Positions 25,181-42,410 are shown, numbered from the stretch's first letter. The stretch: DNA of 64,000 nt from Candidatus Methanoperedenaceae archaeon (GCA_963753595.1 CAVWCX010000036.1:128001-192000); one strand, 5' to 3'. The notes: generated by a model not told the origin, from the sequence alone. Numbers and translations: made by a program.

Positions 25181-26209
25181 ATGAAGAAAACGTCCACATT
25201 TGAAGAACGACTTTACGTCAAGTTGAGAGAGCAGATTAAAGGGAAAAAAGTTGGTTTCCTCCTTGGTGCAGGAGCCTCCTTTCTGAGCGGTAACGGGTAT
25301 CCGCTTGCGAATGGGCTTTGGGAAGCAATCAGAACCCATATGCCGGAAGAAGAACAACGTTTAATCGACAATGAAATTATGCGAGATTCCACCACATTGG
25401 AACAAGCACTGGATAGGTTAGACGGGGGAAGAAACGAATATTCGACCCTCCGTCACTACATCACGAATGCGGTAGCCGCTTCGTTCATTAATCATACACC
25501 TCCTCTCGATTACCACAGAGAATTTGTTATCCGTCTGGGAACGCGGTCTGAGAAACGAATTCCCGTGTTTACACTGAATTACGACTCGCTTATTGAAATT
25601 GCTACTGACATAGAGAAACGGCCTCTTATAGACGGTTTCTTAGGTACGGTGGAGTGCTACTTCCAACCGTCTTGTTTTACAGATTATCGAGGAATATTAG
25701 AGTCACGACGAGGGCGGTCTGTTCCTGTACACACGAGTGGAATAATCAACCTTTACAAGCTTCACGGATCTCTTGGCTGGTTTAAAGATACCGAATCCAG
25801 ACTGAAACGCATTCGACCAGACATGCCATGCCCTCCAGGCTGCATCCATCTTATGGTACCGCCTCAGAACCGCAAAGCTGCTGACACAGGAATAACACCC
25901 TACGCGACTATTTGGTCGGAGTTCCGTGCTCACCTCGCTAATGACTCCTCACGTCTGCTCAATAGGCTGGTATGCGTCGGTTATGGATTGGGTGATGGTC
26001 ACGTTAATGCAGTTATTGAGTCTGCCTTAGCCCGTAATCATTTTACACTTGTTGTTTTGGCGAAAGACCTTTGTGATGACACATTTAAACGTTGGCAGAA
26101 ATCCCCAAAAACTATCATTGTCACCGAAGAACGATCTTCTCTCTATGGAGAGGAGGGGCCAGGTATGCATGATGCGTGGGCATTTGAGTGGCTAGCAAAG
26201 GAGGTATAA
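25181..26209 (+). CDS. SIR2-like (SIR2_2) NADase of a Sir2-HerA defence system
   Basis: FLLGAGAS, FTLNYD, LYKLHGS, VGYGLGDGHVN. Confidence 0.9.
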   Translation: MKKTSTFEERLYVKLREQIKGKKVGFLLGAGASFLSGNGYPLANGLWEAIRTHMPEEEQRLIDNEIMRDSTTLEQALDRLDGGRNEYSTLRHYITNAVAASFINHTPPLDYHREFVIRLGTRSEKRIPVFTLNYDSLIEIATDIEKRPLIDGFLGTVECYFQPSCFTDYRGILESRRGRSVPVHTSGIINLYKLHGSLGWFKDTESRLKRIRPDMPCPPGCIHLMVPPQNRKAADTGITPYATIWSEFRAHLANDSSRLLNRLVCVGYGLGDGHVNAVIESALARNHFTLVVLAKDLCDDTFKRWQKSPKTIIVTEERSSLYGEEGPGMHDAWAFEWLAKEV

Positions 26210-26211
26210 TT

Positions 26212-27876
26212 ATGTCGAATGGAAATTCGAGTTTGGTCGGTCATATACTGGATGTACAAAGTTCGATGTTCACAGCAGACCTAATCCAAAAGGAGGAAGG
26301 TGTTTCACCTACTATCACACTTGGAGACGAGGATATCTCTGTAGGGCGACTTGGGTCGTATATGAGAATCACACAAGGTGCTATCATCGTTATAGCGATG
26401 GTCAGCCGTATGACTGAGAAGGAAATTCTTTCTCCTTTCCCTTCCGATGGCACGGACGTAGCACCAACAGCGGAGGCATTTGCACAGCGAACCATTCAAT
26501 TGGTGCCAATTGGGTGCGTTGGCAGCGATGGTACTTTTGAACGGGGAATATCAGTTTATCCGACGACTGGCGCAGAGGTGCATGCGATTGCGAGTTCCGA
26601 ATTGGACAAGTTGTTCTTGAAGTTCCGGGACAAGCATTACGATGTGGGTGCCGTCTCATCTAATCCGACAACCCGAGTCTACCTTGACCCCTCGCCGCTG
26701 TTCGGGCGTCATTGCGCGATTCTGGGCCAGACTGGTTCAGGAAAGTCTTGGACGATAGCATCGCTCCTTCAGAAGGCAGTCTCACTAATGCCGCGAGCAC
26801 ATATTGTTCTTCTGGACTTACATGGGGAATATAAAAAAGCATTTGCCCCTGAGCACGCAAAGGTCATTGATGCAACGAAACTAGAGATGCCCTACTGGCT
26901 TATGACCTACTCAGAACTTACAGACCTACTCATCGACCGTACTGAACTGAGTGCACACAATCAAACGGCTTTTTTCCGCGATACCATCAACACATTAAAG
27001 CAAGAAGAAGGTGCCCGTCTTAAGTTGCCTCGAACAACAATTGATACACCGGTGTTCTTTTCATTGGAAACCCTAAAGGAAAGGATAAAGTCAAAGAACG
27101 AAGAAATGGTACAGGGCGCCACAAAGCTTATAAAAGGTCCGATGCACGGTGACTTTGACCGTTTCCTAATGCGATTGGATAGCCGTCTCAATGATGTACG
27201 CTATGACTTCCTCCTGAAACCAACGCTTCGGAACAACTCAAGCTCTCTTGAATCTCTATTGAGGGACTTCATTGGCCTAGGGTCATCTAAGGTACCAATA
27301 ACAATTATCGATCTTAGCCCAGTACCCTTCGATGTTCGTCCAACCATTACTGCACAAATTGGACGACTAACTTTCGAATTCAACTTCTGGAATCCGAAGT
27401 ACGAAGAGTTCCCGATACTACTCGTTTGTGAAGAGGCGCATGCATATGTCACGCGGGAGTCCAATTCCCAATTCGAAGGTGCACGGAAGTCGATGGAACG
27501 GATAGCCAAGGAAGGACGCAAATACGGCGTGGGCTTAGCAGTTGTCAGTCAGCGTCCACACGAAGTGTCAGAGACGGTTCTATCGCAATGCGGCACTTTT
27601 GTATGTTTAAGAATTACCAACCCGGATGACCAAGAATATATCCGGAAACTGGTTCCCGAAGCTGAACGCGATTTGGTGAACATCCTGGCAGGAATGCGAC
27701 GAGGGGAAGCGCTTGTCTTGGGAGAAGCTGTACCGATGCCTACACGCATACAGATGGACATGCCCAGCCCGACTCCTCGGAGCAATGACATCGACTTTTA
27801 TAAGTACTGGACCGAGGGACCGATAGATCTTGATGTTGCCACTATCGTTGACAGATGGAGGCGTCAAGCAAGGTAA
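26212..27876 (+). CDS. HerA/DUF87 ATPase of a Sir2-HerA defence system
   Basis: HCAILGQTGSGKS, LDLHGEY, CEEAH, RIAKEGRKYG...SQRP. Confidence 0.92.
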   Translation: MSNGNSSLVGHILDVQSSMFTADLIQKEEGVSPTITLGDEDISVGRLGSYMRITQGAIIVIAMVSRMTEKEILSPFPSDGTDVAPTAEAFAQRTIQLVPIGCVGSDGTFERGISVYPTTGAEVHAIASSELDKLFLKFRDKHYDVGAVSSNPTTRVYLDPSPLFGRHCAILGQTGSGKSWTIASLLQKAVSLMPRAHIVLLDLHGEYKKAFAPEHAKVIDATKLEMPYWLMTYSELTDLLIDRTELSAHNQTAFFRDTINTLKQEEGARLKLPRTTIDTPVFFSLETLKERIKSKNEEMVQGATKLIKGPMHGDFDRFLMRLDSRLNDVRYDFLLKPTLRNNSSSLESLLRDFIGLGSSKVPITIIDLSPVPFDVRPTITAQIGRLTFEFNFWNPKYEEFPILLVCEEAHAYVTRESNSQFEGARKSMERIAKEGRKYGVGLAVVSQRPHEVSETVLSQCGTFVCLRITNPDDQEYIRKLVPEAERDLVNILAGMRRGEALVLGEAVPMPTRIQMDMPSPTPRSNDIDFYKYWTEGPIDLDVATIVDRWRRQAR

Positions 27877-28402
27877 CCATTGATATATTTCAAGGCAATG
27901 AGGGGGGCTATGGCAAATAACAACGGAATTTACGGCAGGTTTTCGAACTCTACGGAAGCCTTCAGCTTCCTTGTCCCGTTGCACTCTCACTCCGCTTTGC
28001 TTCGTTCGGGGCACATAACAGACGGTCATGCGCTTCCGGACCTTGCTGGTCCTTCGCCGAAATTGTTCGCTTCGCTCACAACTCCCATCAGCCGCTTTGA
28101 ATGATTACATCTAATGGGAACAGATAGATTCGTCAACGTCTCAGCAATAGAATTGCGGAGCATGGAGGTTTTGTGTAAGAAGAAGAAAAAACTCCAGACT
28201 TTATACATAGACCTCCGACTTTATACACAGGAGGAACTATTTACACAAAGCCTATATGTCAGGAAAAATACGACTATAAGCAATCTCGATACTCGCTCTA
28301 ATTTTCATCAAGGAAGTTTCTGTTTTAAAAGGATTCTGCTGGTCTGCCAACAGACTCCAAAAAGAATTTTCATGATTCCAGCTGCTTTTTAGGTCTTTGT
28401 TT

Positions 28403-28973
28403 TCATCTACGATTAAAACAAATATATCCAAGTGGAAGATGACACGCATCTCGTAAAACTGAGATTAATCTAAAAGCCGGTTTTATGAATTCATTTATTT
28501 TTGTTTCACCAATGTCGCTGTCAAATATATGAACCAACGTAGCAATATCTAAACCCCACTTTAAATATTCAACTAATTGTCCGATCCACGTATGATATTT
28601 TGTATTATTTAAGTTCGAAGCATAAAAATATTTCGCTTCAACTCCCGCAAAGATTCTCGTGGGGGATTCTTCACAAAAAGGGGGGAGGCATGCCTGATTA
28701 AGATATCCCACGTAAGGAAATATAATCGACTTCAAAGGCTTTGACATAGTTCCTAATTTCAGTCTCATTCAACCCTATAGGGTCTAAGTAACTTTTACAA
28801 TATGGGATAATCTGTTTACATAGACCCACGTGTTTCAACCATTTGCCATTTAACGAGGGTTCCAATCCCACGTTTAAAAAACCCGATTTAGCTAACCACT
28901 CAACTGCCTCTAGCTCGCCATTTGGAAAAACTTTTTTCCCTTCAATATTATCTGATAGATTTTTCATAGACAT
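28403..28973 (-). pseudogene. frameshifted gene, possibly PD-(D/E)xK nuclease-like
   Basis: Two overlapping ORFs in different frames join as ...EVDYISLRG/YLNQ...FAGVEAKY. Confidence 0.4.
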
Positions 28974-29044
28974 CGTATCTACTTTTTAGTAGCTAGCTTA
29001 TATAGTTTCTCCGCGCAGAAATGCCCCGATTTAGAAATTAGAGC

Positions 29045-29230
29045 ATTTTAAGAGCTCCTATAAATTTCAGTATTAGCAGAAACAAGTACAATTTTATTAT
29101 ATTTTATATTTTTGTCATGATCGCATTTTCTGCACCTTCCATGTTCTTCATCCCATAGTGCCTTCTCATGTTGCCGCTCGTGCGCTATGCGAAGGTTCGC
29201 ACGGGTTGCCAGCAAGTGCAGGGAGCTAGG
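29045..29230 (-). pseudogene. paralogous fragment of the 47725-47937 gene
   Basis: Translates HLLATRANLRIAHERQHEKALWDEEHGRCRKCDHD, versus HLTATHANLRIAHESQQEKALCKEEYGSCRTCDYD. Confidence 0.65.
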
Positions 29231-29631
29231 AGACGAAGGCGAGGTATTACAATAGGTGAGGTATGAGGAAGCCCAAGAATCTTTTGCAAAACATCATCCT
29301 GCCTTTTTAGAAATGTGGTAAAGGAGCATATTCATAGTTCCATGAACCTCCAATTTTAGAAGTCTTATTTGTACAAAAACTCAATGTGTTTCTTTTAAGA
29401 GTGCATACATCTGGCATACAAAATTGAATTCTATTATGGTCCAAAGTTTAAACATCGTGGGAGGATATCAAAATCATAAGTTTTTCATCTTTCTTGATAA
29501 CCCCAATATATCATTAATGATAAAAGATCGAAAAATTCTCCAATTTCATAAGATGCAGAACCTGTTTTATTGGATCATGAAAGCAGTTTACCCATTAAAA
29601 TATAATCAAATAATTGCAATTCTCACTTTTG

Positions 29632-30441
29632 TCACATGGGTTCAAGTTTTTCTTTTTTCAATTTTTCCCATAAACCTGCAAACCACGTCTGAAAATAGCT
29701 TATCAAAGCTGGATCATCGATATAAAAAGCTTTGTATGTTTCAAGAGAACCAGTTGGTAGAGAGGGGTGCAGCCATACTCTTAATGACTTCCCAGCTTTT
29801 GATATTACAACAGTAAATGGAATCAAAGATCTCTCACTACCGCCCCACGATGCTATCCTAAAAAGGTTTTCACAGTCAATATTTATTCCGTCCTCTTTTA
29901 ATTCATTCTCCTTCTTTTTTTTATACATCTCAAAGTGTCGTGCATCTACACCGCTAACGATAAAACGACGAGTACATCCTTTTTTAATTGACTCTTTTAT
30001 TGCTTCATCGAATGTTTCAATATCTCTCAAAGGATTAAAAGCGTGAATAACCTGACTCTCATTGATAAGTTTAGACACATCTTCAAAAGTAATAATTCCT
30101 TTATCGCGGTAAATATGGTTGTCGAGTTTACGTAATGAATCTTCAAATTTATTGTCGAGTTTATATAATGAATCTTCAAATTTATTAATTGATGTTTCAA
30201 ATCTATTCCCAGATGCGTCAAATCTATTAATTGATGTATCAATTTCTCGGACATTGTTTTTAAGTATATCGATATTCAAAAAATATGTAAATAAATGCGA
30301 AAATACAATAACCATTGTTAAAAAAATTAATACAACAATTGTTTGAAACCTTGTTAATTCAACAATATATGCTGCTGCAATTGCTCCTACAATTAGCAGA
30401 GCATTTGCAAGAATGTCTTTCACTATATTTATAATAACCAC
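29632..30441 (-). CDS. 2TM plus coiled-coil plus soluble-domain membrane protein
   Basis: Two N-terminal hydrophobic helices; 21-bp and 33-bp internal repeats at 30119-30245; alpha/beta C-terminal domain. Confidence 0.75.
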   Translation of the reverse strand: MVIINIVKDILANALLIVGAIAAAYIVELTRFQTIVVLIFLTMVIVFSHLFTYFLNIDILKNNVREIDTSINRFDASGNRFETSINKFEDSLYKLDNKFEDSLRKLDNHIYRDKGIITFEDVSKLINESQVIHAFNPLRDIETFDEAIKESIKKGCTRRFIVSGVDARHFEMYKKKKENELKEDGINIDCENLFRIASWGGSERSLIPFTVVISKAGKSLRVWLHPSLPTGSLETYKAFYIDDPALISYFQTWFAGLWEKLKKEKLEPM

Positions 30442-30626
30442 CTTTGATTAAATTAATATATGGAATATTCTCTATTGACTAAGACTAAATAAACATATCT
30501 CAAAATTGTTTTGAATAAAAATCGATATCTTATAAATTAAATTATTTCAAAATCTCCATAGCATCAAACTGGTGGTCTCAAATAATAAGATAAAGCTAAA
30601 TAATAAAAAGTGATTATCAAAATAAA

Positions 30627-31613
30627 ATGAAATCATTTTCGGAGTTAAAAGATTGTTCATTTGGTATTAAGCCAAAAGAAATTAAAGCTTTAGTGAAGAT
30701 AGAAGGGGCAATTTTAAATTCAGCTCGAAATTATCTCTTTGAAGATGGTTTTACTGAAGTAATTGTTCCACATATAACTAAAGCAACTGGAGCATGCGAA
30801 AATCCTAACACTTTATTTGAAGTGATTTATTTTAATGAGAAATTAAAACCATATCTTTCTCAAACTGGGCAATTATATTTAGAAATCGTTGTACCATTTT
30901 TGGAAAAAGTATGGTGTTATGGACCAAGTTTTCGGAAAGAAAATAAGGTTGATTATAGGCACTTAACTGAATTTACTTTATTGGAAATTGAGTTTTGTGG
31001 TAATTTTAACCAGTTGCTTTCTAAAATAGAGGGATTGATAAAAGCAATGATAGAAGGGGCAATTCTTCAAAGAGAATATCTTGAAATATTAGGAGTTGAT
31101 TATCAAAGGCTTAAGAATATTAAAACACCCTTTAGGAGAATAACGTATGATGAAGCCATTGGCATACTAAATCTAGATTGGGGAGAAGATTTAAATAGTA
31201 CAAATGAAAAATTTTTGATTGAAAAGTTCGGGAATAGCCCCCTTTTTATCACATATTTTCCAGAACATATAAAATTTTTTAATATGAAAAGAAACTCGGA
31301 TAATCCAAAAGTAGTTAATAGTGCTGATTTATTGCTTCCTTTTAGTGGAGAAGCCGTTGGGGCAGCTGAGAGAGAGATCCTATATGAAATAGTTGAAGAA
31401 AAACTCCAAAAATCATCAATGTTTAAACAATTGTTAGATGTGGGACGAAATATTAATGATTTTGATTGGTACTTAAATTCCATAAAAGAAAATAAGAACT
31501 GTCCTCATGCAGGTTGTGGAATTGGTGTGGAAAGAGTATTGCAGTTTATATTAGCAAGGAGTGACATAAGGCAATCAACACTTTTTCCTTTAAATAAGAT
31601 TAATCTATTTTAG
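30627..31613 (+). CDS. class IIb aminoacyl-tRNA synthetase catalytic core without the anticodon-binding domain (AsnRS2/asparagine synthetase-like)
   Basis: YLSQTGQLYLE, motif 2 GPSFRKE...RHLTEF, ADLLLP..GEAVGAAERE, motif 3 HAGCGIGVERVLQF; only 328 aa. Confidence 0.85.
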   Translation: MKSFSELKDCSFGIKPKEIKALVKIEGAILNSARNYLFEDGFTEVIVPHITKATGACENPNTLFEVIYFNEKLKPYLSQTGQLYLEIVVPFLEKVWCYGPSFRKENKVDYRHLTEFTLLEIEFCGNFNQLLSKIEGLIKAMIEGAILQREYLEILGVDYQRLKNIKTPFRRITYDEAIGILNLDWGEDLNSTNEKFLIEKFGNSPLFITYFPEHIKFFNMKRNSDNPKVVNSADLLLPFSGEAVGAAEREILYEIVEEKLQKSSMFKQLLDVGRNINDFDWYLNSIKENKNCPHAGCGIGVERVLQFILARSDIRQSTLFPLNKINLF

Positions 31614-31672
31614 ATAAATATAGTGGAATGTTCTTATGAGTTTGAATTAAACCAATTTAATCAGCTATTTTT

Positions 31673-32992
31673 CTATTTTATTTTATAAATTTGTTGATCT
31701 TTTAATAGCTTCTCCATTTCTTCGATTAATTTTTCAACATATTTATTATTAGCAGTTATAATCGCTTTCATGGGCCCATGAGTAACATCATAGTTTTCAT
31801 ACATTTTCAATGTTTTTCCAATGTTATCAAGTTTTGGTGTATTAGTTCCCATAGCTTCCGGCGCTGGGATGGGTATTATTGCATATTTATGCTTTTTAGA
31901 AAGTGTAAATCCAAATATTAATTCAGACAATTTTTCATATTTAATTAAACTACTTGCCGGAATGCTAAAAAATGTATTTGATTTATGCAATTTCTTCAAA
32001 TCAAAAAAAATATCATCTTTTGGCATCAATCCTTTAGATAAAGATTCATTATAAACCATTACCCTAGTTTGGTTAATTTGTCCATCATATTTATCTGCAT
32101 TAATCTTAAGATAATTAATATATGTATTTTTCCGAGGCTGAGTCCAGAAACCGCTAGCCCTATCGTTTCTAGATATTACATAGACTGAATCGCTGGGATC
32201 GTAATTCAATTGAATGAGTACCTCTAGAACATTATGCCAGGAAACGAAACTCTTTGTATCATTTAATGCTCTCATGGAATCAAATGTTTTCGATATTACA
32301 TCGTCTAATTCAAAATCAAGGCCATGATCCATGAAATATTTAAGTATTGAACTCTTGACAAGAGGAAAATAATTATACTTCTTGTAATGGTGAGAAGGGG
32401 AATGTGGACTGTAAAAAATGCCTTTTTCACTTTCTGGGGGGTCGTAAGTAAATGTCTTCAATTCCACATTGTGTTTTGTTATCAAGGGTTCGTTTTCAAA
32501 AAAAGGATAGTCTTTCTCTAATGTCACTTTTCTTAAGTAGTCATGGAGTGATTTATTAATAATAAGTTCTCGGGGCTCACAAAAATTAATAATTCGTGTC
32601 GCAGCGCCGATTGTACCTCCGATTTGTATGTATTTTCCTTGAATCCCTTTTAACCCCTCTATTATAAGGACACGATCCTTCTCAGAATAATTGACGGCTG
32701 TCCTGATAATCAGGCCTTTCTTAAGGACGTTTAATGCAAAATCTATTACAAAATCTAAAAATAATTTAGTTGTTTGCTTATCTAACTTGCAATTTCTGCC
32801 CACTGACACAATTGCACCATCGCCAGTAGAGAAAGTGTCTGGTTTAAAATCTTGTAAGTCATTAAGTCTATTATTAAGATATTCGATGAATGATTTCACC
32901 AATATCGCTTGAGTCTCAGGATTTTCATTTGAAAAGCCTTCAATTTCAAAGATTGCAACCAAAGATTTGTCGATTTCTTCTATTTGATTCAT
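31673..32992 (-). CDS. divergent class III nucleotidyl cyclase-domain protein with an unknown C-terminal domain
   Basis: FEIEGFS (E in place of the first Asp), STGDG, IRTAVN, GGTIGAATRIINFCEPRELII, KH motif. Confidence 0.7.
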   Translation of the reverse strand: MNQIEEIDKSLVAIFEIEGFSNENPETQAILVKSFIEYLNNRLNDLQDFKPDTFSTGDGAIVSVGRNCKLDKQTTKLFLDFVIDFALNVLKKGLIIRTAVNYSEKDRVLIIEGLKGIQGKYIQIGGTIGAATRIINFCEPRELIINKSLHDYLRKVTLEKDYPFFENEPLITKHNVELKTFTYDPPESEKGIFYSPHSPSHHYKKYNYFPLVKSSILKYFMDHGLDFELDDVISKTFDSMRALNDTKSFVSWHNVLEVLIQLNYDPSDSVYVISRNDRASGFWTQPRKNTYINYLKINADKYDGQINQTRVMVYNESLSKGLMPKDDIFFDLKKLHKSNTFFSIPASSLIKYEKLSELIFGFTLSKKHKYAIIPIPAPEAMGTNTPKLDNIGKTLKMYENYDVTHGPMKAIITANNKYVEKLIEEMEKLLKDQQIYKIK

Positions 32993-33303
32993 GATTATTA
33001 CCTTTCAATGCAAGAACTTCTCACTTTTTGTACATTTGCTTTTGAATGCGAATGTTTTGGATACATGCAATTTCGTATTTAAATTTCAATCATTACTATA
33101 TCTGTATTGCGTATTATAATTGCCTTGGATTCGAATTATTATTTTTAATAATTTATATATATATATATATTTCTAGGCAAGTTAACGAGTCTCATTTGTA
33201 GGCAACACAACCACTTTGGAAAATTTAAGCTAACCGGTTTTTTATATCCAAAAGTTCCTAACGATAATGAAAACTAAGAAAAAAAACGAATGGGGCTTAA
33301 GTC

Positions 33304-36300
33304 TTAATCCCCACAATACAATCTAAATCCACACTCTCCACAGACCTTCTCATCTTTCGTCCTCTCAAACCCGTGTTCGTAATCATGTGCAATCTTCTTC
33401 ACGATCTCGATCATATCCTCAATAGCATTCCCATCGAGCCCTTCCATCCGTGAACTACCCGAACTTTCAAACTTCCCATCGATCAGCTCAAATGTCCTGG
33501 GATTGGGAAGACCAAGCTGTTCGAGTGTGAGTCTTTTCACTTTATATTGGGGATAAATATGTTCAATACCCCTTGCATAAAGGAGAAGTTGTCTTGACCT
33601 GTCATCAGGTCCGGGTTCAGATTTTCCGGTCTTATAATCGATGATCTCAATTTCATTCTTTGTGCCAGGCATCAGATCCACTCGGTCGATAAATCCTTTA
33701 AACGTAAACCCTCCAAGCGGTACAGCGAATCTTTGCTCAACCATCAGGTTGTTCGCAATTCTATTTTTGTTCCGCTCCCAGAATACATCAAGCGCCGCTG
33801 TTGCTATTTCAATATCAACACCCTTGAAATCAGGTTCTTTTGCAACCATGTCCCTGATCTCATACAGCCTCTCTTTTTTGGTTATTTTCTCACTCACCGC
33901 TATCTCAAGCACCTTATGAACAAAATTTCCCCTATTCATGGCTCCTGTAGAATCCTCAGAATCGCGTGTAGGCATCCTGAGAAGCTCTGCAAGTTCATAC
34001 TGCCTGGGGCAGTTCTCATAGGAACTTATAGAGGAATAGCTGAAAGTCATGCTTGCGGGATTGAATTTCAACCCGTTCTTATTCTCTTTGATTTTATCCA
34101 GAATATTTTCAGCGTCATGCGCAGGGTCTATTTTTTCCCAGTTGGAATTGAAAAGTTCCTTGAAATCCGGCGCCTTCCCAACCTTCAAAGCCTGATACAG
34201 CAGCGTATTTTTCATGATCTCAGCAAAATTCCCTGAATCAAGCAACTCGATGAGTAGCCTTTTTCGGACAGCCTTTTCCCGTTCAAGCGCGCTGTCCTTT
34301 ATCATTTCCCTGACTTTCGTATCAGTATCCCGGAAATAGATGAGATCACCAACTATGATATTCTCACCGGCTCTCCAGTTATCGTATCCGATATCCAAAA
34401 GGAACTCAGACGGCTCTCTTTCATCGTCAGCGTATTTGATTGCCAGCGTCAGGAAAAGATGTTCTTTTGCCCTGGTAAATGCCACATACGCAAGCCGTCT
34501 CTCTTCTTCCTTTTTGATCTCTTTCTTGCGTTCCCTGACTGCTTTTTCAGTATCTTTGATGGATTCGTCCTCAAAAATGTCCCTGTACTGTTCCATCAAT
34601 TCTGGCGGGATGAGAGGTTCTGTGCCTCCCCGATACAGAGGGAATTTATCTTTTGCAAGGTTCGTGAGAAATACAACCTTAAACTCCAGTCCTTTTGCCG
34701 AATGTATGGTCATGAGGTTTATGGCATCCTCATCCGCTATTCTTGCCGGCGCCGGATTCCCATCCATCTCGTCAAGTATCTCAAGATAATCGATGAACAA
34801 ACTCAGGTCTTTTCCGTGGAACTCTTCAAAATTACGGGCTAATTCATGAAGCTGTCTCAGATTCAAAAGCGCTTCCCTGCTGCGCTTTGTGTCAGTATGG
34901 GCGAATTGCCTTGAGAGCCCCGATTGATCATATACCTCAAGGATAAGGTCTGATACATCCAGATTCGTCTTCGAACAAAGTAAATCGATTCTCTTTTTTA
35001 CATTGTTTATGGTCTCAAGTCCGCTCTTTGAAAATCCGAGTTCTCCAATATGATGATAGATGGCTTCCTGGAACGAGACCCACTTTTTCTTAAGATATTC
35101 TCCTATCCTGATAGAATCTTCCTGGCTCAGGGCATTATTGTAATGGAATATCCTCCACCATGCCTCTGTACCGCGGGCTGTGGGATGAGAGACATTGTTG
35201 ATAATATACAGGTAAGCGAGAGCGGTCTTTATTTCGGGCTGTTTCAGGAAATCGGTATCGTCCTTGACCCGGAAGGGCAGACCTCTGTTTTCAAGAGCCA
35301 GTCTAACCTTTCTTCCCTGGGCATGTGTCCTGTATAATACTGCAATTTCTTTTGGAGGGATACCCTGTGCAAGATAGTCTTCGATCTTTTCAACTATGGC
35401 TCTTGCTTCTTCGTTATCATCTTCTGTTTCAATGATGCTGACGTTCTCCCCTTCAGTATCTTTGTGATTTTTGAGGAGCAGACATTCTTGCCTTTTCTCC
35501 GTTCCATAGTTCTTTTTGATTAGGGTATGAGCCACTCTGAGAATCTTATTGGTTGACCTGAAACTGACATCCAGTGACACGATGTCTTTATCTGAAAGAG
35601 AGAATTGCTTCTTGAACTCCTCGATATTATTGGTGTACGCTCCCCGGAATGCGTAAATGGTCTGGTTCGGATCTGCCACCACTGTTATGTTCTTATTCGC
35701 TGCTGTGAGCTTTTTTATCAGCTCGAACTGGACATAATTCGTATCCTGGAATTCATCAATGATTATGTAGCGGAATGTGTTGTTTAATCCTTGAGTGCCA
35801 TACACGTCGAGATACCAGAGGGCGATCTTATTCAGGTCGCCGTAATCCAGTGCACCTATAGCTGATTTCTTCTCTTCGTATTTCTCCCAGGCTGATATGA
35901 AGTTTGAATATTTCTGGTATTCTTCATAGAGGTCTATGAATTCGGAGTATCTTTTCTTCTCTGCCTGTTTTGCCTTCTTATCTTCTTTGTCTTTGAATTC
36001 CTGAAGATGAAAGGTATTGAGTTTGAATTTAGATTCGCGATACAGTTCCTTCCATGTGCTTTCATCTTTTTCGATCATCTGAACTTGTTTTTTAAGGGTT
36101 TCCAGAAATTCTTTGAATTTATCTGTTGAGATATTCAGGTCTTTGGCTTTTCCGATCGTGTTTGCATAAAGGCTGGCGGTCCTTGCATTGATCCTGAGTT
36201 CCCGGAATATGAAAATGGCTGAATCCATCTCCTCGAATATCTTGAAGTCGCCGGGAACTTTGCATCTTTCAGCATGATCCTTGATAAGCTCGGCGCAGAA

Positions 36301-36579
36301 TGAGTGAAAAGTCTTAACGATCACTTCCTTTCCCTGAAGGAGTTTCTCGACTTTTTCGCGCATGTTCCTTGCAGCTTCTTTGGAGAAGGTGAGAGCGAGG
36401 ATCTGGGAGGGGTCGATACCTTCCTTTTCGACCATGTATGCAATCTTTGCAGTTATGGTCGTTGTCTTGCCTGTGCCTGCACCTGCAAGGATCAGTTGGG
36501 GGGCTTGGGTGTGTTTTATGGCTTCAAGCTGGCGAGGTTTTAGGGATGAGAGGAGGGAGTTTAAGAAAATATATACCAC
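33304..36579 (-). CDS. UvrD/PcrA-like SF1 helicase fused to a C-terminal PD-(D/E)xK nuclease
   Basis: AGAGTGKT, TFHSF, IDEFQD, ADPNQTIYAFRGA, TIHSAKGLEF, EERRLAYVAFTRAK; GFIDRVD...IIDYKTG and CPR...CGECGFRLYC. Confidence 0.93.
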   Translation of the reverse strand: MVYIFLNSLLSSLKPRQLEAIKHTQAPQLILAGAGTGKTTTITAKIAYMVEKEGIDPSQILALTFSKEAARNMREKVEKLLQGKEVIVKTFHSFCAELIKDHAERCKVPGDFKIFEEMDSAIFIFRELRINARTASLYANTIGKAKDLNISTDKFKEFLETLKKQVQMIEKDESTWKELYRESKFKLNTFHLQEFKDKEDKKAKQAEKKRYSEFIDLYEEYQKYSNFISAWEKYEEKKSAIGALDYGDLNKIALWYLDVYGTQGLNNTFRYIIIDEFQDTNYVQFELIKKLTAANKNITVVADPNQTIYAFRGAYTNNIEEFKKQFSLSDKDIVSLDVSFRSTNKILRVAHTLIKKNYGTEKRQECLLLKNHKDTEGENVSIIETEDDNEEARAIVEKIEDYLAQGIPPKEIAVLYRTHAQGRKVRLALENRGLPFRVKDDTDFLKQPEIKTALAYLYIINNVSHPTARGTEAWWRIFHYNNALSQEDSIRIGEYLKKKWVSFQEAIYHHIGELGFSKSGLETINNVKKRIDLLCSKTNLDVSDLILEVYDQSGLSRQFAHTDTKRSREALLNLRQLHELARNFEEFHGKDLSLFIDYLEILDEMDGNPAPARIADEDAINLMTIHSAKGLEFKVVFLTNLAKDKFPLYRGGTEPLIPPELMEQYRDIFEDESIKDTEKAVRERKKEIKKEEERRLAYVAFTRAKEHLFLTLAIKYADDEREPSEFLLDIGYDNWRAGENIIVGDLIYFRDTDTKVREMIKDSALEREKAVRKRLLIELLDSGNFAEIMKNTLLYQALKVGKAPDFKELFNSNWEKIDPAHDAENILDKIKENKNGLKFNPASMTFSYSSISSYENCPRQYELAELLRMPTRDSEDSTGAMNRGNFVHKVLEIAVSEKITKKERLYEIRDMVAKEPDFKGVDIEIATAALDVFWERNKNRIANNLMVEQRFAVPLGGFTFKGFIDRVDLMPGTKNEIEIIDYKTGKSEPGPDDRSRQLLLYARGIEHIYPQYKVKRLTLEQLGLPNPRTFELIDGKFESSGSSRMEGLDGNAIEDMIEIVKKIAHDYEHGFERTKDEKVCGECGFRLYCGD

Positions 36580-36818
36580 CGTTTTAAGTTGGTTAAAGGA
36601 ATACCTCTGGAATAATAATACTTTGCAAGAAGCACCATGATTTCAGCATCATGGTCTTTATAAAAATGATTTTTTTTAATGCAATGTATTTTTTGATTGA
36701 ATACATGGAAAGTCGGGACAATTACCTCTGCGGTGCTGTTCTTGGGCTGGTGGTGGGGATGAGGATGACGGTCACCTGGATGAAATCTATAACTATCTGA
36801 AATATTTGAAATAATTGT

Positions 36819-37067
36819 CTACTTGTTAGAAAGTGATTTATTAAGATGGATAAGTTCTTTCTCTTGCTCAACCAAAATAGATAGGAAAACAGCATGCATT
36901 GGGTCAAGAGTCGGTACAACAGTGCAAGATGACGCATGTGCTCTCGCTTGGTTCATTAGGGTATCAAATGCAATTCTGTCCTCTCCCCTCAGTGCCCTTC
37001 GAAAATCCGATAACTCTTCAATTATCCCTTCTAGCAGGATTCGAAAGCTAGGAACAGTCCGGCCCAT
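36819..37067 (-). CDS. small conserved archaeal protein of the type found in PolB2 operons
   Basis: MGRTVPSFR...FRRALRGEDRIAFD..M..AR.H. Confidence 0.6.
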   Translation of the reverse strand: MGRTVPSFRILLEGIIEELSDFRRALRGEDRIAFDTLMNQARAHASSCTVVPTLDPMHAVFLSILVEQEKELIHLNKSLSNK

Positions 37068-37503
37068 TGTTACCCTCCATATTCAGATAGCTTCGTTTGC
37101 CCAAATGGAATTATTCTTTTAGATCTGCAGGTCTCGTTTAGACTAACCACGCTTTTTGAAATAATTACAACTCGTCCAGATTTCGCCCATTTTTCAATAC
37201 ACTTCGATAGTTGAAAAGGCATATGTCATTCACCTCTTTCCAAGTTGATTTGAGTCCTTAAAAAGCAAATGGTATCCATGGAGTGAAAGTAATAAATATA
37301 TGAATAGTCGAGATATAACATACGATGCCTATCACATTCACCGACGAAGACCTGATGCAAAAAGTCCCTAATTTTTTAATGATGTAAATACAATATAGAT
37401 ATAAATTATTAATTCATATACGACTTCTAGAATTAAACATATGCATTTATAAAAATAGATGATAGGAGAATATTTATATTTTTGAAAATAATTTTGTTAA
37501 TTC

Positions 37504-38523
37504 ATGAAGATAAATAGTGAAAATGTTCCTCAAGCCGATAATTTAGAAGACGTTATTGAATGTGTGATTGCAGTTTCAGAAGGAGAAGGAACCTATCAAG
37601 AAATTGCCAATAGGATTGGGAAAGTAGAAAGGCAAGGTAGATACTATAGAAAAGCTGCTGAAATCTTGGGGTTAATAATTAATCAAAATAATGAATCTCA
37701 TCTAACAGATCTTGGACGTCAATTTTCACAAAATCCTACTTTAGGGAATCCTATTTTATTGCAGGCTGTTTTAAATGCTCGAATATTTCAACGATTAATA
37801 CCTTTTTTTGAAATTCATTCACAAGGAATTACTAAAGTGGAGTTAATAGAATATTTAACTCAAAATATAGAAGAAGTTGGGGATACAATGTTACCAAGAA
37901 GAGCCAGCACTTTATTATCTTGGTTACAATCATTAAATATTGTTATAGAAAATAATGATGTTTTTAACTTAACCAATTCTCTTACACAAATCGTCCCCAT
38001 ATTAAAGTTTACTGATTTGGATGAACCCATTCTTCCTCATTCAAGCGATTTGAGTGAATACCAAATAGTAGAACAAAGAGCATCAAGAGCAAAAGAATCA
38101 ATTAGTTTTTCTAGAGATGAAATTAAATTTGAAAGAGCTGAAAACGCTCATCTTAGCCTTGTTAACATAACAGCTTTAAAAATAAGACAAAGAGGATTTT
38201 TACCCAGATCTAATCAAATAATTGATTTAGCTGCAAGATATGAAAACATAGATTACATATTTGAGATGAAATCAATTACTGAAAGCAACTACAGATCACA
38301 AATACGAAAGGGAATTAGTCAACTTTATGAGTATAGATATCTACAAAATCTGCCAAATGCCAAACTTGTACTCGTAATTGAAACCTATCTGCCTTCAAAT
38401 GCTTCCTGGATGCATGATTATCTTGAATCCGATAGGGAAATAATGTTAGTTTGGGATGGAAACGATGATTTATTCTCTAGTGATAATACTAAGCATGATT
38501 TGCATTTCTTATTTGACTTATAA
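37504..38523 (+). CDS. winged-helix plus PD-(D/E)xK putative restriction nuclease
   Basis: PQADNLEDV, RQGRYYRKAAEILG; C-terminal IDL...IFEMKS..QIRKGISQLYEY. Confidence 0.75.
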   Translation: MKINSENVPQADNLEDVIECVIAVSEGEGTYQEIANRIGKVERQGRYYRKAAEILGLIINQNNESHLTDLGRQFSQNPTLGNPILLQAVLNARIFQRLIPFFEIHSQGITKVELIEYLTQNIEEVGDTMLPRRASTLLSWLQSLNIVIENNDVFNLTNSLTQIVPILKFTDLDEPILPHSSDLSEYQIVEQRASRAKESISFSRDEIKFERAENAHLSLVNITALKIRQRGFLPRSNQIIDLAARYENIDYIFEMKSITESNYRSQIRKGISQLYEYRYLQNLPNAKLVLVIETYLPSNASWMHDYLESDREIMLVWDGNDDLFSSDNTKHDLHFLFDL

Positions 38524-38790
38524 AAATAGATAGTGAAGTTCAGTGCATGTTCGACATATTTCATATATTTCACGAGTTAAAGATCCAGACATTTAAATTA
38601 ACTTTACACCATTCTCTCACTTGAATACAAAATATTCTTATATATACTATGGAGCAATTAAGAGTTGCATATATTTAGAAAAAGACATGAAAAAATCACA
38701 TGGAAAAAGATTAAAGGGTCTCAGGATTTCTAAACTACTAAAGAATGACGATCGTTTGATTATGATAGGTAATCCGAAAAAGGACATATT

Positions 38791-40656
38791 ATGAAAAAAG
38801 CTCAGCCATTCTTAAAGTGGGCAGGTGGCAAGACACAGTTATTGCCCGAATTGCTTAACCATGTTCCAAATACCTATGGGCGATATATTGAGCCATTCGT
38901 AGGTGCCGGGGCGCTATTCTTCCATTTGCAGCCAAAAAGGGCATTATTGGCTGACCTGAATGGTGATTTGATCAATTGTTATGAGGTCGTAAGAGATCAA
39001 ATCCAATCTTTAATCGATGAGTTGCAGAAATACGTAAATGATGAAAAGTTATATTACAAGGTGCGTAATCGCAATCCAAACAGACTGAATCCTGTACAAC
39101 AAGCAGCTCGCACCATTTATTTGAATAAAACCTGTTATAACGGGCTTTATAGGGTGAATAAGGATGGCAAGTTTAATGTTCCGTTTGGGAAACGGGTGAA
39201 TCCAACGATTTGTGATGAATCAAAGCTTATGGCAGCTCACTTAGCACTAAAAGATGTGGATTTAGTTTGTGGAGATTATAAGGAAGTGCTTCAAAAATAC
39301 GCTGAACCTGGAGATTTTGTGTATCTAGATCCGCCGTATTATCCGGTTGGGGGGCACGCAGATTTTAAACGATACACCAAAGAATTTTTCTATGAAGAGG
39401 ACCACGGCGAGCTAAGGGATGAGTTTTGTCGATTGGTGAAAATAGGATGTCGTACACTCTTAACTAACTCTAATACAGACTTTGTTAGAAGACTATATGA
39501 TGGGTTCGATTATAAGGTTGTTGACACAAAGAGAAACATCAGCAGTAAGACGATAACACGTAGGGGACAAGATCTAATTGTCATCGCTACTCAATCACCC
39601 CAGAGAACTCCATCCCGGTTGAGTCTGAGTGGGAGCAAGTTGTTAGAACATTTTCCTGGAACTCGATATATGGGTAGCAAATATCGTGTGTTACCTTTTA
39701 TATGGCAATGTGTAGAAGATTTGCCATTTAAATCAGTACTAGATGCGTTCTCTGGGAGTGGATGTGTATCATACATGTTTAAACAGCGTGGATTCCGAGT
39801 GATCAGTAACGACTTTATGCACTTTACACATCACTTAGCTGTAGCGACAATTGAAAATTCTAGTATACAACTGAATGATAAAGATGTTGAGATGTTAATG
39901 AAACAAAATCCTAATGCAAGAACATTTATCGCGGATACATTTAAAGATTTATATTTTAGCGATGAAGAAAATACTTTTTTGGATTCATTACGTGCTAATG
40001 TTGAATTGCTAGAAAATCGGTACAAAAAATCTTTGGCTTTAGCTGCGATATCGAGGGCTTGTATGAAGAGACGGGCTCGTGGAATTTTTACGTTTATTGG
40101 GGATCGTTATGATGATGGTCGTAGAGATATGCAGATCACTCTTCAGCAGCATTTCTTGGAAAATGTTCATGCATTTAATGTTGCTGTCTTTGATAATAAA
40201 CAAGAGAATCTATCTTTAAATCAGGATGTATTCGATTTGGATGTGCATGCAGATTTGGTATATCTGGATCCTCCATATTACACTCCAAACTCAGATAATG
40301 ACTATACAAGACGGTATCACTTTGTAGAGGGTTTAGTGCGGCAGTGGCAAGGAGTAGAAATACAAGCTCATACAATTACGAAAAAATTCAAACGCTATGA
40401 AACACCATTTATTTCAAAGGATACTGTATATGATGCATTTGATCGCCTCTTCAAAAAGTTCCAAGAAAGTATCATTGTCGTTTCCTATTCTTCTAATTCT
40501 ATTCCAGAAAAGGGAGATTTGGTTGACCTTCTCAAGAAATACAAAAGTCAAGTAAGAGTGCATCAAATTGAGCATTTGTACTCATTCGGAACGCATGGAC
40601 ATAAAGTAGGGGATAATGCTAACAGAGCTATGGAATTTGTTTTTGTTGCGTATTAA
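38791..40656 (+). CDS. fused double Dam-class N6-adenine methyltransferase (FokI/AlwI-type)
   Basis: Two MTase units: KWAGGK/EPFVGAG/DPPY and RYMGSK/DAFSGSG/DPPY. Confidence 0.93.
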   Translation: MKKAQPFLKWAGGKTQLLPELLNHVPNTYGRYIEPFVGAGALFFHLQPKRALLADLNGDLINCYEVVRDQIQSLIDELQKYVNDEKLYYKVRNRNPNRLNPVQQAARTIYLNKTCYNGLYRVNKDGKFNVPFGKRVNPTICDESKLMAAHLALKDVDLVCGDYKEVLQKYAEPGDFVYLDPPYYPVGGHADFKRYTKEFFYEEDHGELRDEFCRLVKIGCRTLLTNSNTDFVRRLYDGFDYKVVDTKRNISSKTITRRGQDLIVIATQSPQRTPSRLSLSGSKLLEHFPGTRYMGSKYRVLPFIWQCVEDLPFKSVLDAFSGSGCVSYMFKQRGFRVISNDFMHFTHHLAVATIENSSIQLNDKDVEMLMKQNPNARTFIADTFKDLYFSDEENTFLDSLRANVELLENRYKKSLALAAISRACMKRRARGIFTFIGDRYDDGRRDMQITLQQHFLENVHAFNVAVFDNKQENLSLNQDVFDLDVHADLVYLDPPYYTPNSDNDYTRRYHFVEGLVRQWQGVEIQAHTITKKFKRYETPFISKDTVYDAFDRLFKKFQESIIVVSYSSNSIPEKGDLVDLLKKYKSQVRVHQIEHLYSFGTHGHKVGDNANRAMEFVFVAY

Positions 40657-40670
40657 TATGAAGGTTTAAC

Positions 40671-42410
40671 ATGCCTAATGTATGGAATCTAGGAAATACA
40701 ACCATTCGAAACCCAAATCGCATTGAGTTAGGATTACGACTTTTTTCTGAAGAGTTTCAAGGTAACGTACATGGAGCGGAGGCAGAGGAGCGATTTGCTA
40801 AGAGATTAGCCGAGGAAGAAATTGTCGAATCAGAGGGAAGTTATGGTGATTTGTTTGGTCGTAAATGGCGTTCTGTTTTAGTGAAACTAGGATTTGCTAC
40901 TGATATTAAATATATAATTGGGAAAAGAAGTTTTAAGGTAGTAGATCTGGCAAAACAGCGACCAGAATTGGGACTAAAAGGGCTTGAATATGAATTGACA
41001 CCAGCCGGTAAACATCTATTAGAAGCAGATACAACTGGTGCGATACAGGATGTCTTTTTGAGGCAGTTGGTACGTCATGAGCTCCCCTCACCGATTGAAA
41101 GTGGATTTCCACGTGGTCAAATTAAACCTTTTATTTATGTACTTCAGGTTTTAAAAAAGTTATTAGAACGAAATGAGCAGGGACTCAGCAAATTTGAAAT
41201 GGCTGCATTTTTGCAACTGTTCATTGATCACACGGATAATGCGATTGAGCAAACAGTGGAACGCGTGTTAGAATATCGTAAACAGCGCGATACATGTGAT
41301 GATCAGGCAGCGAAACGGAAATTTGACGAAACTCAAATACAGGCGTCGGCTTTGGCAGGTAATGTAAAGAGCGACACATTGGTAGATTATGCAGATACAA
41401 CTTTCCGGTATACCCAGATGACTGGAATAGTAGCTCAGCAAGGATCACGATTGATATTGCGCGAGAATAAAATGCCGATTATCGAAGCACTGCTAATAAA
41501 AGAGCCTGCGTTTTTAGCTAGAGAAGATCCGTTTGGTTATTTAGCTGACTTCTACACAGGAACATCCTTACCCACGGATAATATTACTTTTGCAAATAGT
41601 GAGATTAAGCGCTTGGTTGATGAAATAAGGAAATATGGTAAAGAGCCTGCTTTAGATATGGCAAATCTCTCAGTTACTATGAAAATTCAAGAAATAGAAA
41701 GATTGCGATATAATCTACTTGAACAATTAAGTTGGGCTCGCGAAGATCAGTTTGCCGCCGATCAAGTGAAAGACGAGTCCATCCAAGATATACTGAAATA
41801 TATAGATGCATTAGAAACGCTTGCTAAGAGCAAGAAAATGGGTATTTTAGATCGTCCAGCTTACCTGGAATGGGTAGTTTGGCGCGGTTTTCTTGCAATT
41901 GATCGTATCATCATACCTTTTCACCAAACAAGGCGTTTTCCTGTCAATGAGGATTTACATCCACGGCATCCGGCACCTGGCGGTGGCTCAGATATGATAT
42001 TCGAATTTGAAGATTACGTTTTAGTAGTGGAAGTGACATTGACTGGCTCTTCACGCCAAATAGCAGCTGAAGGAGAACCTGTACGTCGGCATGTAGCTGA
42101 TATAAAAGAGAAATATGCAAACAAAGAAGTGTACGGGATTTTTATTGCACCATCGATAGATAACAATACCGCAGAAACCTTTCGGATAGGAATTTGGTAC
42201 CGAGGGGACCTAGAGGAATTTATGAACATTGTTCCTTTTACGTTAAACCAATTCAGGCAGATGATTGAGACTTTGCTTAAACAACGATATTCACCAAAGA
42301 ATATTCAACAACTGATGGATCGGTGCTTAACATATAGAAATACAAAAGCTCCTGAATGGAAGCGAATGATTGATGTAGAGAAGAATCGATGGATAGCACG
42401 CCTCGATTAA
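40671..42410 (+). CDS. AlwI-family type IIS restriction endonuclease
   Basis: N-terminal GNTTIRNP.R, DYADTTFRY, PAYLEW..WR.FL, APGGGSDM..E...EVTL...EGEPVRRH. Confidence 0.88.
   Translation: MPNVWNLGNTTIRNPNRIELGLRLFSEEFQGNVHGAEAEERFAKRLAEEEIVESEGSYGDLFGRKWRSVLVKLGFATDIKYIIGKRSFKVVDLAKQRPELGLKGLEYELTPAGKHLLEADTTGAIQDVFLRQLVRHELPSPIESGFPRGQIKPFIYVLQVLKKLLERNEQGLSKFEMAAFLQLFIDHTDNAIEQTVERVLEYRKQRDTCDDQAAKRKFDETQIQASALAGNVKSDTLVDYADTTFRYTQMTGIVAQQGSRLILRENKMPIIEALLIKEPAFLAREDPFGYLADFYTGTSLPTDNITFANSEIKRLVDEIRKYGKEPALDMANLSVTMKIQEIERLRYNLLEQLSWAREDQFAADQVKDESIQDILKYIDALETLAKSKKMGILDRPAYLEWVVWRGFLAIDRIIIPFHQTRRFPVNEDLHPRHPAPGGGSDMIFEFEDYVLVVEVTLTGSSRQIAAEGEPVRRHVADIKEKYANKEVYGIFIAPSIDNNTAETFRIGIWYRGDLEEFMNIVPFTLNQFRQMIETLLKQRYSPKNIQQLMDRCLTYRNTKAPEWKRMIDVEKNRWIARLD

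Follow-up and report, generated by a model that had tools for sequence, protein, structure and literature searches.

In type II Thoeris a TIR protein makes the signal His-ADPR, which gates a transmembrane (TM) effector, that is, a conjugate of an amino acid and a nucleotide serves as an immune signal. Amino acids are also adenylated for non-tRNA acceptors by paralogues of the aminoacyl-tRNA synthetases (aaRSs), namely the archaeal asparagine synthetase that resembles asparaginyl-tRNA synthetase (AsnRS), and EpmA/GenX. Among cyclase-based systems, the main-text passages of 10.64898/2026.08.12.744502 describe Pycsar-2 cyclases that bear a C-terminal sensor domain, AGS-C. This paper is concerned with a 64-kb stretch of DNA from Candidatus Methanoperedenaceae archaeon (genome G000), which is called the window hereafter and from whose first letter all coordinates are counted unless a locus handle precedes them. 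Three adjacent genes at 29632-32992 encode a protein with two predicted TM segments (2TM protein, P0001), a stand-alone aaRS core (P0002) and a protein resembling class III nucleotidyl cyclases (P0003). As the initial annotation of this DNA had described, they are AT-rich open reading frames (ORFs) inside a defence island between SIR2-HerA and the UvrD-nuclease and restriction-modification genes: their guanine + cytosine (GC) contents are 31.9%, 30.7% and 32.1%, respectively, against 48.1% in HerA and 43.7% in the UvrD-nuclease gene on the flanks.

The reading that we prefer, and that we hold tentatively, is that P0002 and P0003 form a two-gene module. Their genes are convergent (tail-to-tail) with a gap of 59 bp. 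Two collection scans gave 24 loci with P0003 homologues, with at least 1.2 kb of sequence upstream of the homologue in 13 and downstream of it in 16, and tblastn of P0002 on these loci found a match in one of the 24, locus L003 of an Acidobacteriaceae metagenome-assembled genome (MAG; G455). There, a 321-aa core (tRNA-synt_2, E 2.1e-37) faces the cyclase homologue tail-to-tail, which is the arrangement of the window, and this core carries the inserts of the truncated synthetase family and the AERE motif, which it shares with P0002. G455 encodes a separate full-length AsnRS elsewhere, and its pair has 53.0% and 53.4% GC compared with 57-60% in the flanks. In a survey of such cores in 400 genomes of the phylum of G455, which included the unpublished genomes G479, G504 and G607, the best 150 matches contained no other open frame shorter than 380 aa, save two cut by contig starts; 252 weaker matches lay outside these 150, and 11 genomes had at least two matches. 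In 60 relatives of G000 only full-length AsnRSs were found (open frames of 414-509 aa) and the truncated core in none, so P0002 is not a housekeeping enzyme in this lineage. Truncated cores are therefore rare among the approximately 460 genomes sampled. The P0003 family was likewise not found in the 60 relatives of G000, in 400 genomes of the phylum of G000, in 400 genomes of the phylum of G455 or in 80 of its genus. Because the cyclase family and the truncated cores are so rare, both genes are lineage-specific in each of the two genomes, where they are adjacent and matched in GC content. If it is assumed that at most 3% of genomes carry a truncated core and that a genome has about 4000 genes, adjacency by chance would be roughly 1.5e-5 per locus and 2e-4 over the 16 loci, a rough estimate that clustering of genes in islands would raise, perhaps hundredfold.

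The most telling observation is that loss of the cyclase active site tracks the aaRS pairing. In an alignment of 75 sequences D16 is present in 67, D58 in 67, D126 in 65, N129 in 67 and R133 in 72, and, going by the motifs of class III cyclases, we take columns 16 and 58 to be the two metal-binding Asp residues and columns 129 and 133 to be the Asn/Arg pair of the transition state. In the window copy these five positions read E16, D58, G126, G129 and R133, that is, D16E, D126G and N129G with D58 kept, and the motifs EIEGFS and TGDG and the G replacing the N of N..AR are present in its sequence. The altered catalytic residues that the initial annotation had pointed out are thus real, but they are a trait of this copy and of one clade and not of the family. 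All 13 clade-mates of window P0003 are canonical. The L003 copy has lost a metal-binding Asp (D58N) and belongs to a clade of eight members with 100% support, every member of which has degenerate catalytic columns. Both aaRS-adjacent copies are non-canonical. Eleven other copies have no aaRS gene at their locus, at least 1.2 kb of downstream sequence and residues at all four columns, and 10 of these 11 are canonical (one-sided Fisher test, p 0.038; the numbers are very small).

The way in which the residues were lost bears on the same point. Among the other 74 sequences, 100 alignment columns show conservation of 85% or more. Window P0003 departs from the family at only four of them (16, 126, 129 and 236), three of which fall in catalytic motifs. 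Compared with its nearest relative, P0004, and with P0008-P0011 as the common reference, its N-domain is about 9 identity points more diverged and its C-domain about 2 points. Because the losses are confined to the catalytic motifs and the rest of P0003 is conserved, the active site looks selectively dismantled, which resembles a pseudoenzyme shift rather than gene decay. The altered residues of the window copy point to loss of cyclase chemistry and not to an unusual cyclase product. As for the family, most members keep the cyclase catalytic residues and so probably make a cyclic nucleotide, a synthesis that would be under the control of the C-terminal domain.

Several observations weigh against such a module. 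The pair is known from two instances only, the window included, and the L003 core, which has a long branch in the tree, shares only 37-38% identity with P0002, so the two pairings may be independent or may partly reflect island clustering. Five homologues from the clade of the window copy were checked, those in L004 (71% identity), L002 (67%), L005 (67%, a locus that extends only 499 bp downstream), L006 (65%) and L010 (59%), and they have no aaRS neighbour. The contigs of the nearest homologues of P0002 (47.7, 7.8 and 4.2 kb) match in length none of those that bear the listed P0003 homologues, an indirect hint that the truncated core also occurs without the cyclase. Since close clade members lack the aaRS and the nearest relatives of P0002 may lack the cyclase, the pairing would be either ancient and often lost, or have arisen twice. 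Moreover, the two genes are convergent and not co-transcribed, and no PADLOC defence profile matches any of the three proteins meaningfully. A complex prediction for P0002 with P0003 scored 0.00 against a mark of 0.32 and counts neither way.

In a rival reading, three unrelated genes of an island lie together by island clustering. P0003 would be a stand-alone cyclase-PLD-like (phospholipase D-like) defence gene with a decaying active site, P0002 a horizontally acquired paralogue of archaeal-type AsnRS with a metabolic role, for example in asparagine synthesis, and P0001 an independent single-gene membrane effector. The partners of P0003 homologues do vary by locus, mostly with no constant neighbour; P0001 relatives occur in 0 and P0002 relatives in 1 of the 24 loci; P0002 nests in a large archaeal family of 325-370-aa proteins with 52-59% identity; and the base composition of the trio is not peculiar to it, as DUF7226 (31.3% GC), PRTase (25.7%) and ParB (28.6%) of the same island are equally AT-rich. 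We nevertheless consider that reading rather unlikely, because a gene type that is very rare in bacteria recurs, in two phyla and with the same orientation, next to members of a family that is itself very rare, because residue loss restricted to catalytic motifs looks like a pseudoenzyme shift and not decay, because P0002 is far below the AsnA models (114 bits vs 368) and because it is missing from the 60 relatives.

P0002 itself was described at the outset as a class IIb core that has lost the anticodon-binding oligonucleotide-binding (OB) domain and kept motifs 2 and 3, and the profile and motif comparisons bear this out. Pfam tRNA-synt_2 covers residues 16-323 (E 2.8e-49), no tRNA_anti-codon domain appears in the Pfam scan of the protein, and its best solved relative is the AsnRS core of P. 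horikoshii (1x54, E 1.2e-55). Motifs 2 and 3 are preserved, as SFRKE..RHLTEF and GCGIGVER respectively, and align with 1x54 and with the AsnRSs of both genomes, and the core is thus predicted to be catalytically intact. The protein also stands apart from the housekeeping enzyme, AsnA and EpmA, since it falls far below all model cut-offs: 203 bits against 414 and 198.5 against 342.6 for NCBIfam AsnRS (asnS), with a match that starts at about model position 125; 113.9 bits at best against 368 for the AsnA models (NCBIfam PRK06462); and 28.7 against 264 and 28.3 against 286.9 for the EpmA/GenX models. Six relatives of P0002 are likewise below cut-off and no NCBIfam equivalog fitted them. The family is large and consists of stand-alone cores of 325-370 aa, the listed relatives being 52-59% identical to P0002 and the named ones coming from Bathyarchaeia, Nitrososphaerales and Aenigmarchaeota. 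It has in common a two-residue insert (TGACE), an insert of about nine residues and AERE where AsnRS has SQRE. In a quick IQ-TREE analysis P0002 and five closer proteins (66-77% identity) form a 100%-supported clade nested in this truncated family. The archaeal bulk and the abundance of the family fit a metabolic role, which weighs against the module.

The surroundings of the core in L003 bring in another explanation, namely that the truncated core makes, or acts as a decoy for, a toxin of the aspartyl- or asparaginyl-adenylate type, and that the membrane proteins (P0001 in the window and a major facilitator superfamily (MFS) transporter in L003) serve export or immunity. A membrane-protein gene is divergent from the aaRS core in both loci, and extra aaRS copies are a means of self-immunity in producers of aaRS inhibitors. 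Such an antibiotic logic is very improbable in our view, for neither locus shows a peptide precursor, an MccB-like adenylyltransferase or any further biosynthetic gene, P0001 is outside the transporter families, and the cyclase-family partner and its active-site loss would be left unexplained. Beside the G455 pair (L050, G455:C7, 208143-213090) the MFS transporter gene is on the same strand as genes for a 636-aa protein without a Pfam match and a 597-aa protein that ends in an Ion_trans_2 channel domain, the latter two genes both having 52.6% GC, which is near that of the pair. The insertion site in G455 is undefinable, because only two oxidoreductase genes are syntenic in seven relatives.

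To return to the proposed two-gene module, its second member has no Pfam or NCBIfam match and no PADLOC match at E values up to 1, and its assignment depends on structure. The AlphaFold model of P0003, made with 75 homologues, has a pLDDT of 90.2. Residues 1-189 match class III cyclases (Foldseek, 3et6_B, E 2.6e-12, TM(target) 0.85; VIA, the same chain, Z 19.9, root mean square deviation 2.4, 176 aligned), so the cyclase fold that the initial annotation had proposed for the 439-aa protein is present. The solved Pycsar cyclases are matched by this domain with VIA Z scores of 15.9 (8jsz), 14.7 (8jsf) and 13.7 (7r65). The structure searches also gave an answer for the two C-terminal domains that had been left without assignment, as those of both P0001 and P0003 match chains of the PLD fold. 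For P0003 the VIA matches are NucT (6ehi, Z 9.9, 139 aligned), SauUSI (7clg, Z 9.6) and TrmBL2 (5bpd, Z 9.6), with 134-141 residues aligned. The assignment of residues 245-439 to a PLD-like fold is probable and not firm, because the domain was seen only in the model of the whole protein and its matches are weaker than those of P0001. A profile search with the P0003 family alignment against the sequences of solved structures gave weak cyclase matches only (best E 0.014) and none for the C-domain.

The C-domain of the P0003 family has no HxK motif; only H336 is near-invariant, and no conserved Lys stands two residues further on. Its invariant residues are R275, W283, N307, R310, G361, T363 and S365, all of which the window copy retains, and D277, Q308 and H336 are near-invariant; the polar ones among the invariant residues, together with the near-invariant ones, suggest a binding pocket. 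A protein of 406 aa, P0083, has a TIR_2 head (E 1.3e-25) followed by a C-domain of the P0003 type with 63% identity over residues 211-439; the domain is a mobile module.

The P0003 family is rare, horizontally scattered and found mostly among defence genes. A word-seeded search of 5.8 billion proteins gave 86 homologous clusters, whose proteins are about 440 aa long and, where aligned, 36-78% identical, and only one of the 86 had a precomputed Guanylate_cyc match. Its sources include Solibacter, a Jatrophihabitantaceae bacterium and Desulfatibacillum, to which the genome scan adds Chloroflexia and the Acidobacteriaceae MAG. Viral contigs contained no relative of the P0003 family alignment or of P0002; in plasmids neither P0003 nor P0001 had a match, and the matches of P0002 were all to full-length asnS. 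Across the 24 loci the neighbours are heterogeneous. ThsB-like or Aga-like TIR genes are immediately upstream of the homologue in L001 and L011; these TIR proteins are without a cyclic nucleoside monophosphate (cNMP)-binding domain, and the tail of that in L011 has weak sub-threshold matches to aspartyl proteases (E 0.005). Other neighbours are an LmuB-like ATPase (L002), a DrmC-like PLD with an SNF2 helicase (L006), a methyltransferase (L010), a capP-like peptidase (L016), a GajB-like UvrD-nuclease (L017), NERD (L019) and a dGTPase (L021), and in L005, L007 and L024 the homologue is flanked by housekeeping genes.

PycTM is beside the homologue in L013 and L014. In L013 (924-2421) there is a complete Pycsar system, PycTM and then PycC (E 1.9e-31), immediately downstream of the homologue, and as PycTM has its own true PycC there, this system is simply next door. 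In L014 the homologue directly follows PycTM, in the place where PycC stands in L013. Just upstream of the 71%-identical homologue in L004 (3-872) is the gene of a protein with a diadenylate cyclase (DAC) domain (E 1.5e-10); DAC enzymes in anti-phage signalling are described in recent preprints. An identification of P0003 as an ordinary Pycsar cyclase was rejected, as it matches no PycC profile, has no cNMP-gated effector and has lost catalytic residues.

The third gene of the locus, P0001, is divergent from P0002 with 185 bp between them. Hydropathy gives two hydrophobic stretches within residues 1-57 of the protein, residues 58-113 are a long helix or repeat region modelled with low confidence, and residues 115-265 are a folded C-domain with a pLDDT of about 85-90. 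By VIA this domain matches NucT (Z 11.8, 133 aligned), Zucchini (Z 11.7) and TrmB (Z 10.5), with 19 PLD-fold chains at Z of at least 10, and by Foldseek it matches TrmBL2 (E 2.5e-6). The family alignment has no invariant His or Lys and no HxK(x)4D motif. As to known 2TM effectors, P0001 scores 17.7 bits with NCBIfam SLATT_5 against a cut-off of 60 and has a PADLOC RTasSLATT match at E 0.0026, and no PycTM or cNMP-binding match was found in Pfam or PADLOC. An exhaustive HMMER search of 1.84 billion representatives found only eight proteins of its family. One of them, P0214 (312 aa), has a C-domain of the P0001 type behind a head with weak matches to Nuc_deoxyrib_tr (E 0.0055) and CAP12/Pycsar-TIR (E 0.026).

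The initial annotation had grouped all three genes into one module that might make or sense a messenger gating the 2TM protein. In such a trio the aaRS core, the cyclase-like protein or both would make a nucleotide or aminoacyl-nucleotide signal, and the PLD-like domain of the 2TM protein would read it and membrane damage would follow. The genes are contiguous and have a common GC content of 31-32% compared with 44-48% in the flanks; the C-domains of P0001 and P0003 are both PLD-like without the HKD motif and match the same chains (NucT, SauUSI, TrmB/TrmBL2); each PLD-like type is also found behind a TIR-type head (P0083 and, weakly, P0214), an architecture expected of signal-gated effectors; and in L003, too, the gene of a membrane protein, the MFS transporter, is divergent from the aaRS core. 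However, relatives of P0001 are in none of the 24 P0003-homologue loci, L003 included; the contexts of its family are uninformative with eight members only; the two PLD-like domains are without sequence similarity (BLASTP found nothing between P0001 and P0003, and hhalign gave E 0.4 for P0001 against the P0003 family and E 0.11 with a probability of 0.5% for the PLD-like domains of the two families); P0001 is far below the SLATT cut-off; and the head matches of P0214 are sub-threshold. We regard the trio as unlikely. Of the co-occurrence proposed earlier, therefore, the cyclase/aaRS-core part was found again in another phylum (1 of 24 loci), but the 2TM protein, which is beside none of the other 24 cyclase loci and has a family of eight proteins, is not established as a member. 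Its tie to the pair, which is unproven, consists of adjacency, shared base composition and shared fold only, and P0001 is a candidate membrane effector.

If P0002 and P0003 do form a module, we infer that they might act jointly and in defence in the following way. The aaRS core would supply an ATP-dependent adenylation of an amino acid that serves for signalling or else does damage, and the pseudo-cyclase with its PLD-like domain would be a nucleotide-binding sensor or a regulator of the aaRS core. In a bolder version the signal of a Pycsar-like immune module would no longer be made by the cyclase but by an aaRS-derived adenylating enzyme that replaced it in this task, with an aminoacyl-adenylate or aminoacylated nucleotide as the messenger, which would be read by the HKD-less PLD-fold domains on the pseudo-cyclase and on a 2TM effector; this version seems to us quite improbable.

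The features of the locus and its island are collected in Table 1. The next gene upstream of P0003 in the window, on its strand and 311 bp away, is UvrD-PD-(D/E)XK, and in L017 (1584-5549) a UvrD-nuclease gene precedes the P0003 homologue in the same position, at a distance of 433 bp. This neighbourship may be an island coincidence, because the two helicases share only about 30% identity and because the window UvrD gene differs from P0003 in GC content (43.7% vs 32.1%). The run of DUF7226, methyltransferase and endonuclease genes is probably a type IIS restriction-modification system, and the PRTase-CE/ParB_N pair probably represents a further conflict system. The island also contains RadC, a metallophosphoesterase and PIN. 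HerA and P0001 are about 1.75 kb apart, and all ORFs in this gap are short (92, 121, 91 and 130 aa); none of them has a Pfam match, and those of 121 and 91 aa are also negative in PADLOC. A promoter and terminator scan of the window locus was no better than shuffles, no tRNA gene was found in the window and an Rfam scan of 27000-38000 gave no relevant match; a sub-threshold match inside the UvrD gene was to sRNA n00280, which is the Rfam "C. difficile sRNA included into helicase gene". Contigs from four DNA sequencing runs covered parts of each of the three genes in short, near-identical pieces of low depth, and no piece bridges two genes.

Table 1. Features of the three-gene locus and of the surrounding island in the 64-kb window
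Feature	Coordinates	Strand	Description
P0001	29632-30441	-	269 aa; 2TM + helical repeat region + HKD-less PLD-like domain
P0002	30627-31613	+	328 aa; stand-alone class IIb (AsnRS-type) aaRS catalytic core
P0003	31673-32992	-	439 aa; class III cyclase-fold domain + linker + probable HKD-less PLD-like domain
P0003 residues 1-189	32426-32992	-	Class III nucleotidyl-cyclase fold; Foldseek, VIA, alignment columns
P0003 residues 245-439	31676-32260	-	Probable PLD-like fold without HKD motif; VIA, invariant columns
P0001 residues 115-265	29647-30099	-	PLD-like domain, no conserved His/Lys; VIA, Foldseek, alignment
P0001/P0002 divergent intergenic region	30442-30626	.	AT-rich, 20.5% GC, 185 bp
SIR2 + HerA	25181-27876		PADLOC HerA E 1.2e-153
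HerA-P0001 gap	27877-29631		Short ORFs only
UvrD + PD-(D/E)XK	33304-36579	-	GajB-like in PADLOC
Sub-threshold match to sRNA n00280	34435-34536	-	Inside UvrD gene; 36.6 bits vs gathering score 65.2 (E 0.005)
DUF7226 protein, D12 methyltransferase, AlwI-family endonuclease	37504-42410	+	Consecutive; methyltransferase of 621 aa
D12 methyltransferase + AlwI endonuclease	38791-42410	+	Last two genes of the above run
PRTase-CE + ParB_N pair	42550-44309	-	PADLOC PRTase_III-A, E 5e-26; 25.7 and 28.6% GC

Should the pair prove real, it would for the first time connect an aaRS paralogue with a nucleotide-signalling immune family, and it would be a natural case of a defence cyclase that turned into a pseudoenzyme on gaining another ATP-using partner. 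It would also define two unannotated domain families, HKD-less PLD-like modules carried on cyclase, TIR or 2TM heads, which look like sensor modules of conflict systems. The aminoacyl-nucleotide messenger, if true, would be a new class of immune signal with a new receptor fold. Even the conservative reading adds to the genes of defence islands a rare, unannotated cyclase-PLD-like family, neither domain of which is known to Pfam or PADLOC. Full-text literature searches returned, in the passages retrieved, no paper that connects an aaRS paralogue with defence against phages, the single match being a general review.

When the locus is compared with known systems, P0003 shares with Pycsar and Pucsar the class III cyclase fold and the setting in defence islands, and PycTM or TIR is beside four of the 24 loci of its family. 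Unlike in Pycsar, PycC profiles miss P0003 and, at 1e-5, the L001 homologue, whereas the true PycC in L013 scores 1.9e-31; the window is without a cNMP-binding effector, and PycTM is beside two of the 24 loci, one of them with its own PycC. Of the architectures described so far, that of the Pycsar-2 cyclase with AGS-C comes nearest, judging from the main-text passages of 10.64898/2026.08.12.744502, but the C-domain of P0003 is PLD-like and is not recognised as AGS-C by Pfam. The available passages of PMC13069673 and 10.64898/2025.12.03.692087 mention no synthetase or PLD partner. Another analogy for the cyclase domain in its present state is the adenylate cyclase-like ATP-binding protein of P. 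aeruginosa (6yii), which has the cyclase fold (VIA Z 12.2) with catalytic residues replaced, although it is not closely related to P0003 and the other members of the P0003 family look active. Nucleotide binding without turnover is a likely function of such class III cyclase-like pseudoenzymes, P0003 among them.

P0002 resembles the asparagine synthetase AS-AR/AsnA (passages of PMC2330236 give general background on AsnA) and EpmA/GenX in being a catalytic core without an anticodon-binding domain and with motifs 2 and 3 intact. It differs from them in being closer to true AsnRS cores, in its family inserts and AERE for SQRE, and in its position in a defence island beside a pseudo-cyclase. With AsnRS it shares motifs 2 and 3, but it is without the N-terminal OB domain and falls below the equivalog cut-offs. 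The likeness to type II Thoeris is solely the concept of an amino acid-nucleotide conjugate as an immune signal, as the window trio has no TIR, Macro or SLOG domain in Pfam, and in the P0003 family TIR is beside two of the 24 homologous loci and in one fusion. P0001, in turn, differs from the SLATT 2TM effectors in falling below the SLATT cut-off. The C-domains of P0001 and, with weaker matches, of P0003 have the fold of the PLD (HKD) superfamily without its HxK(x)4D motif. In this they are like the C-domain of TrmB/TrmBL2 and DUF1669 of FAM83, which are also HKD-less PLD folds without HxK, but they have no sequence relationship to these and are here fused to cyclase, TIR or 2TM heads.

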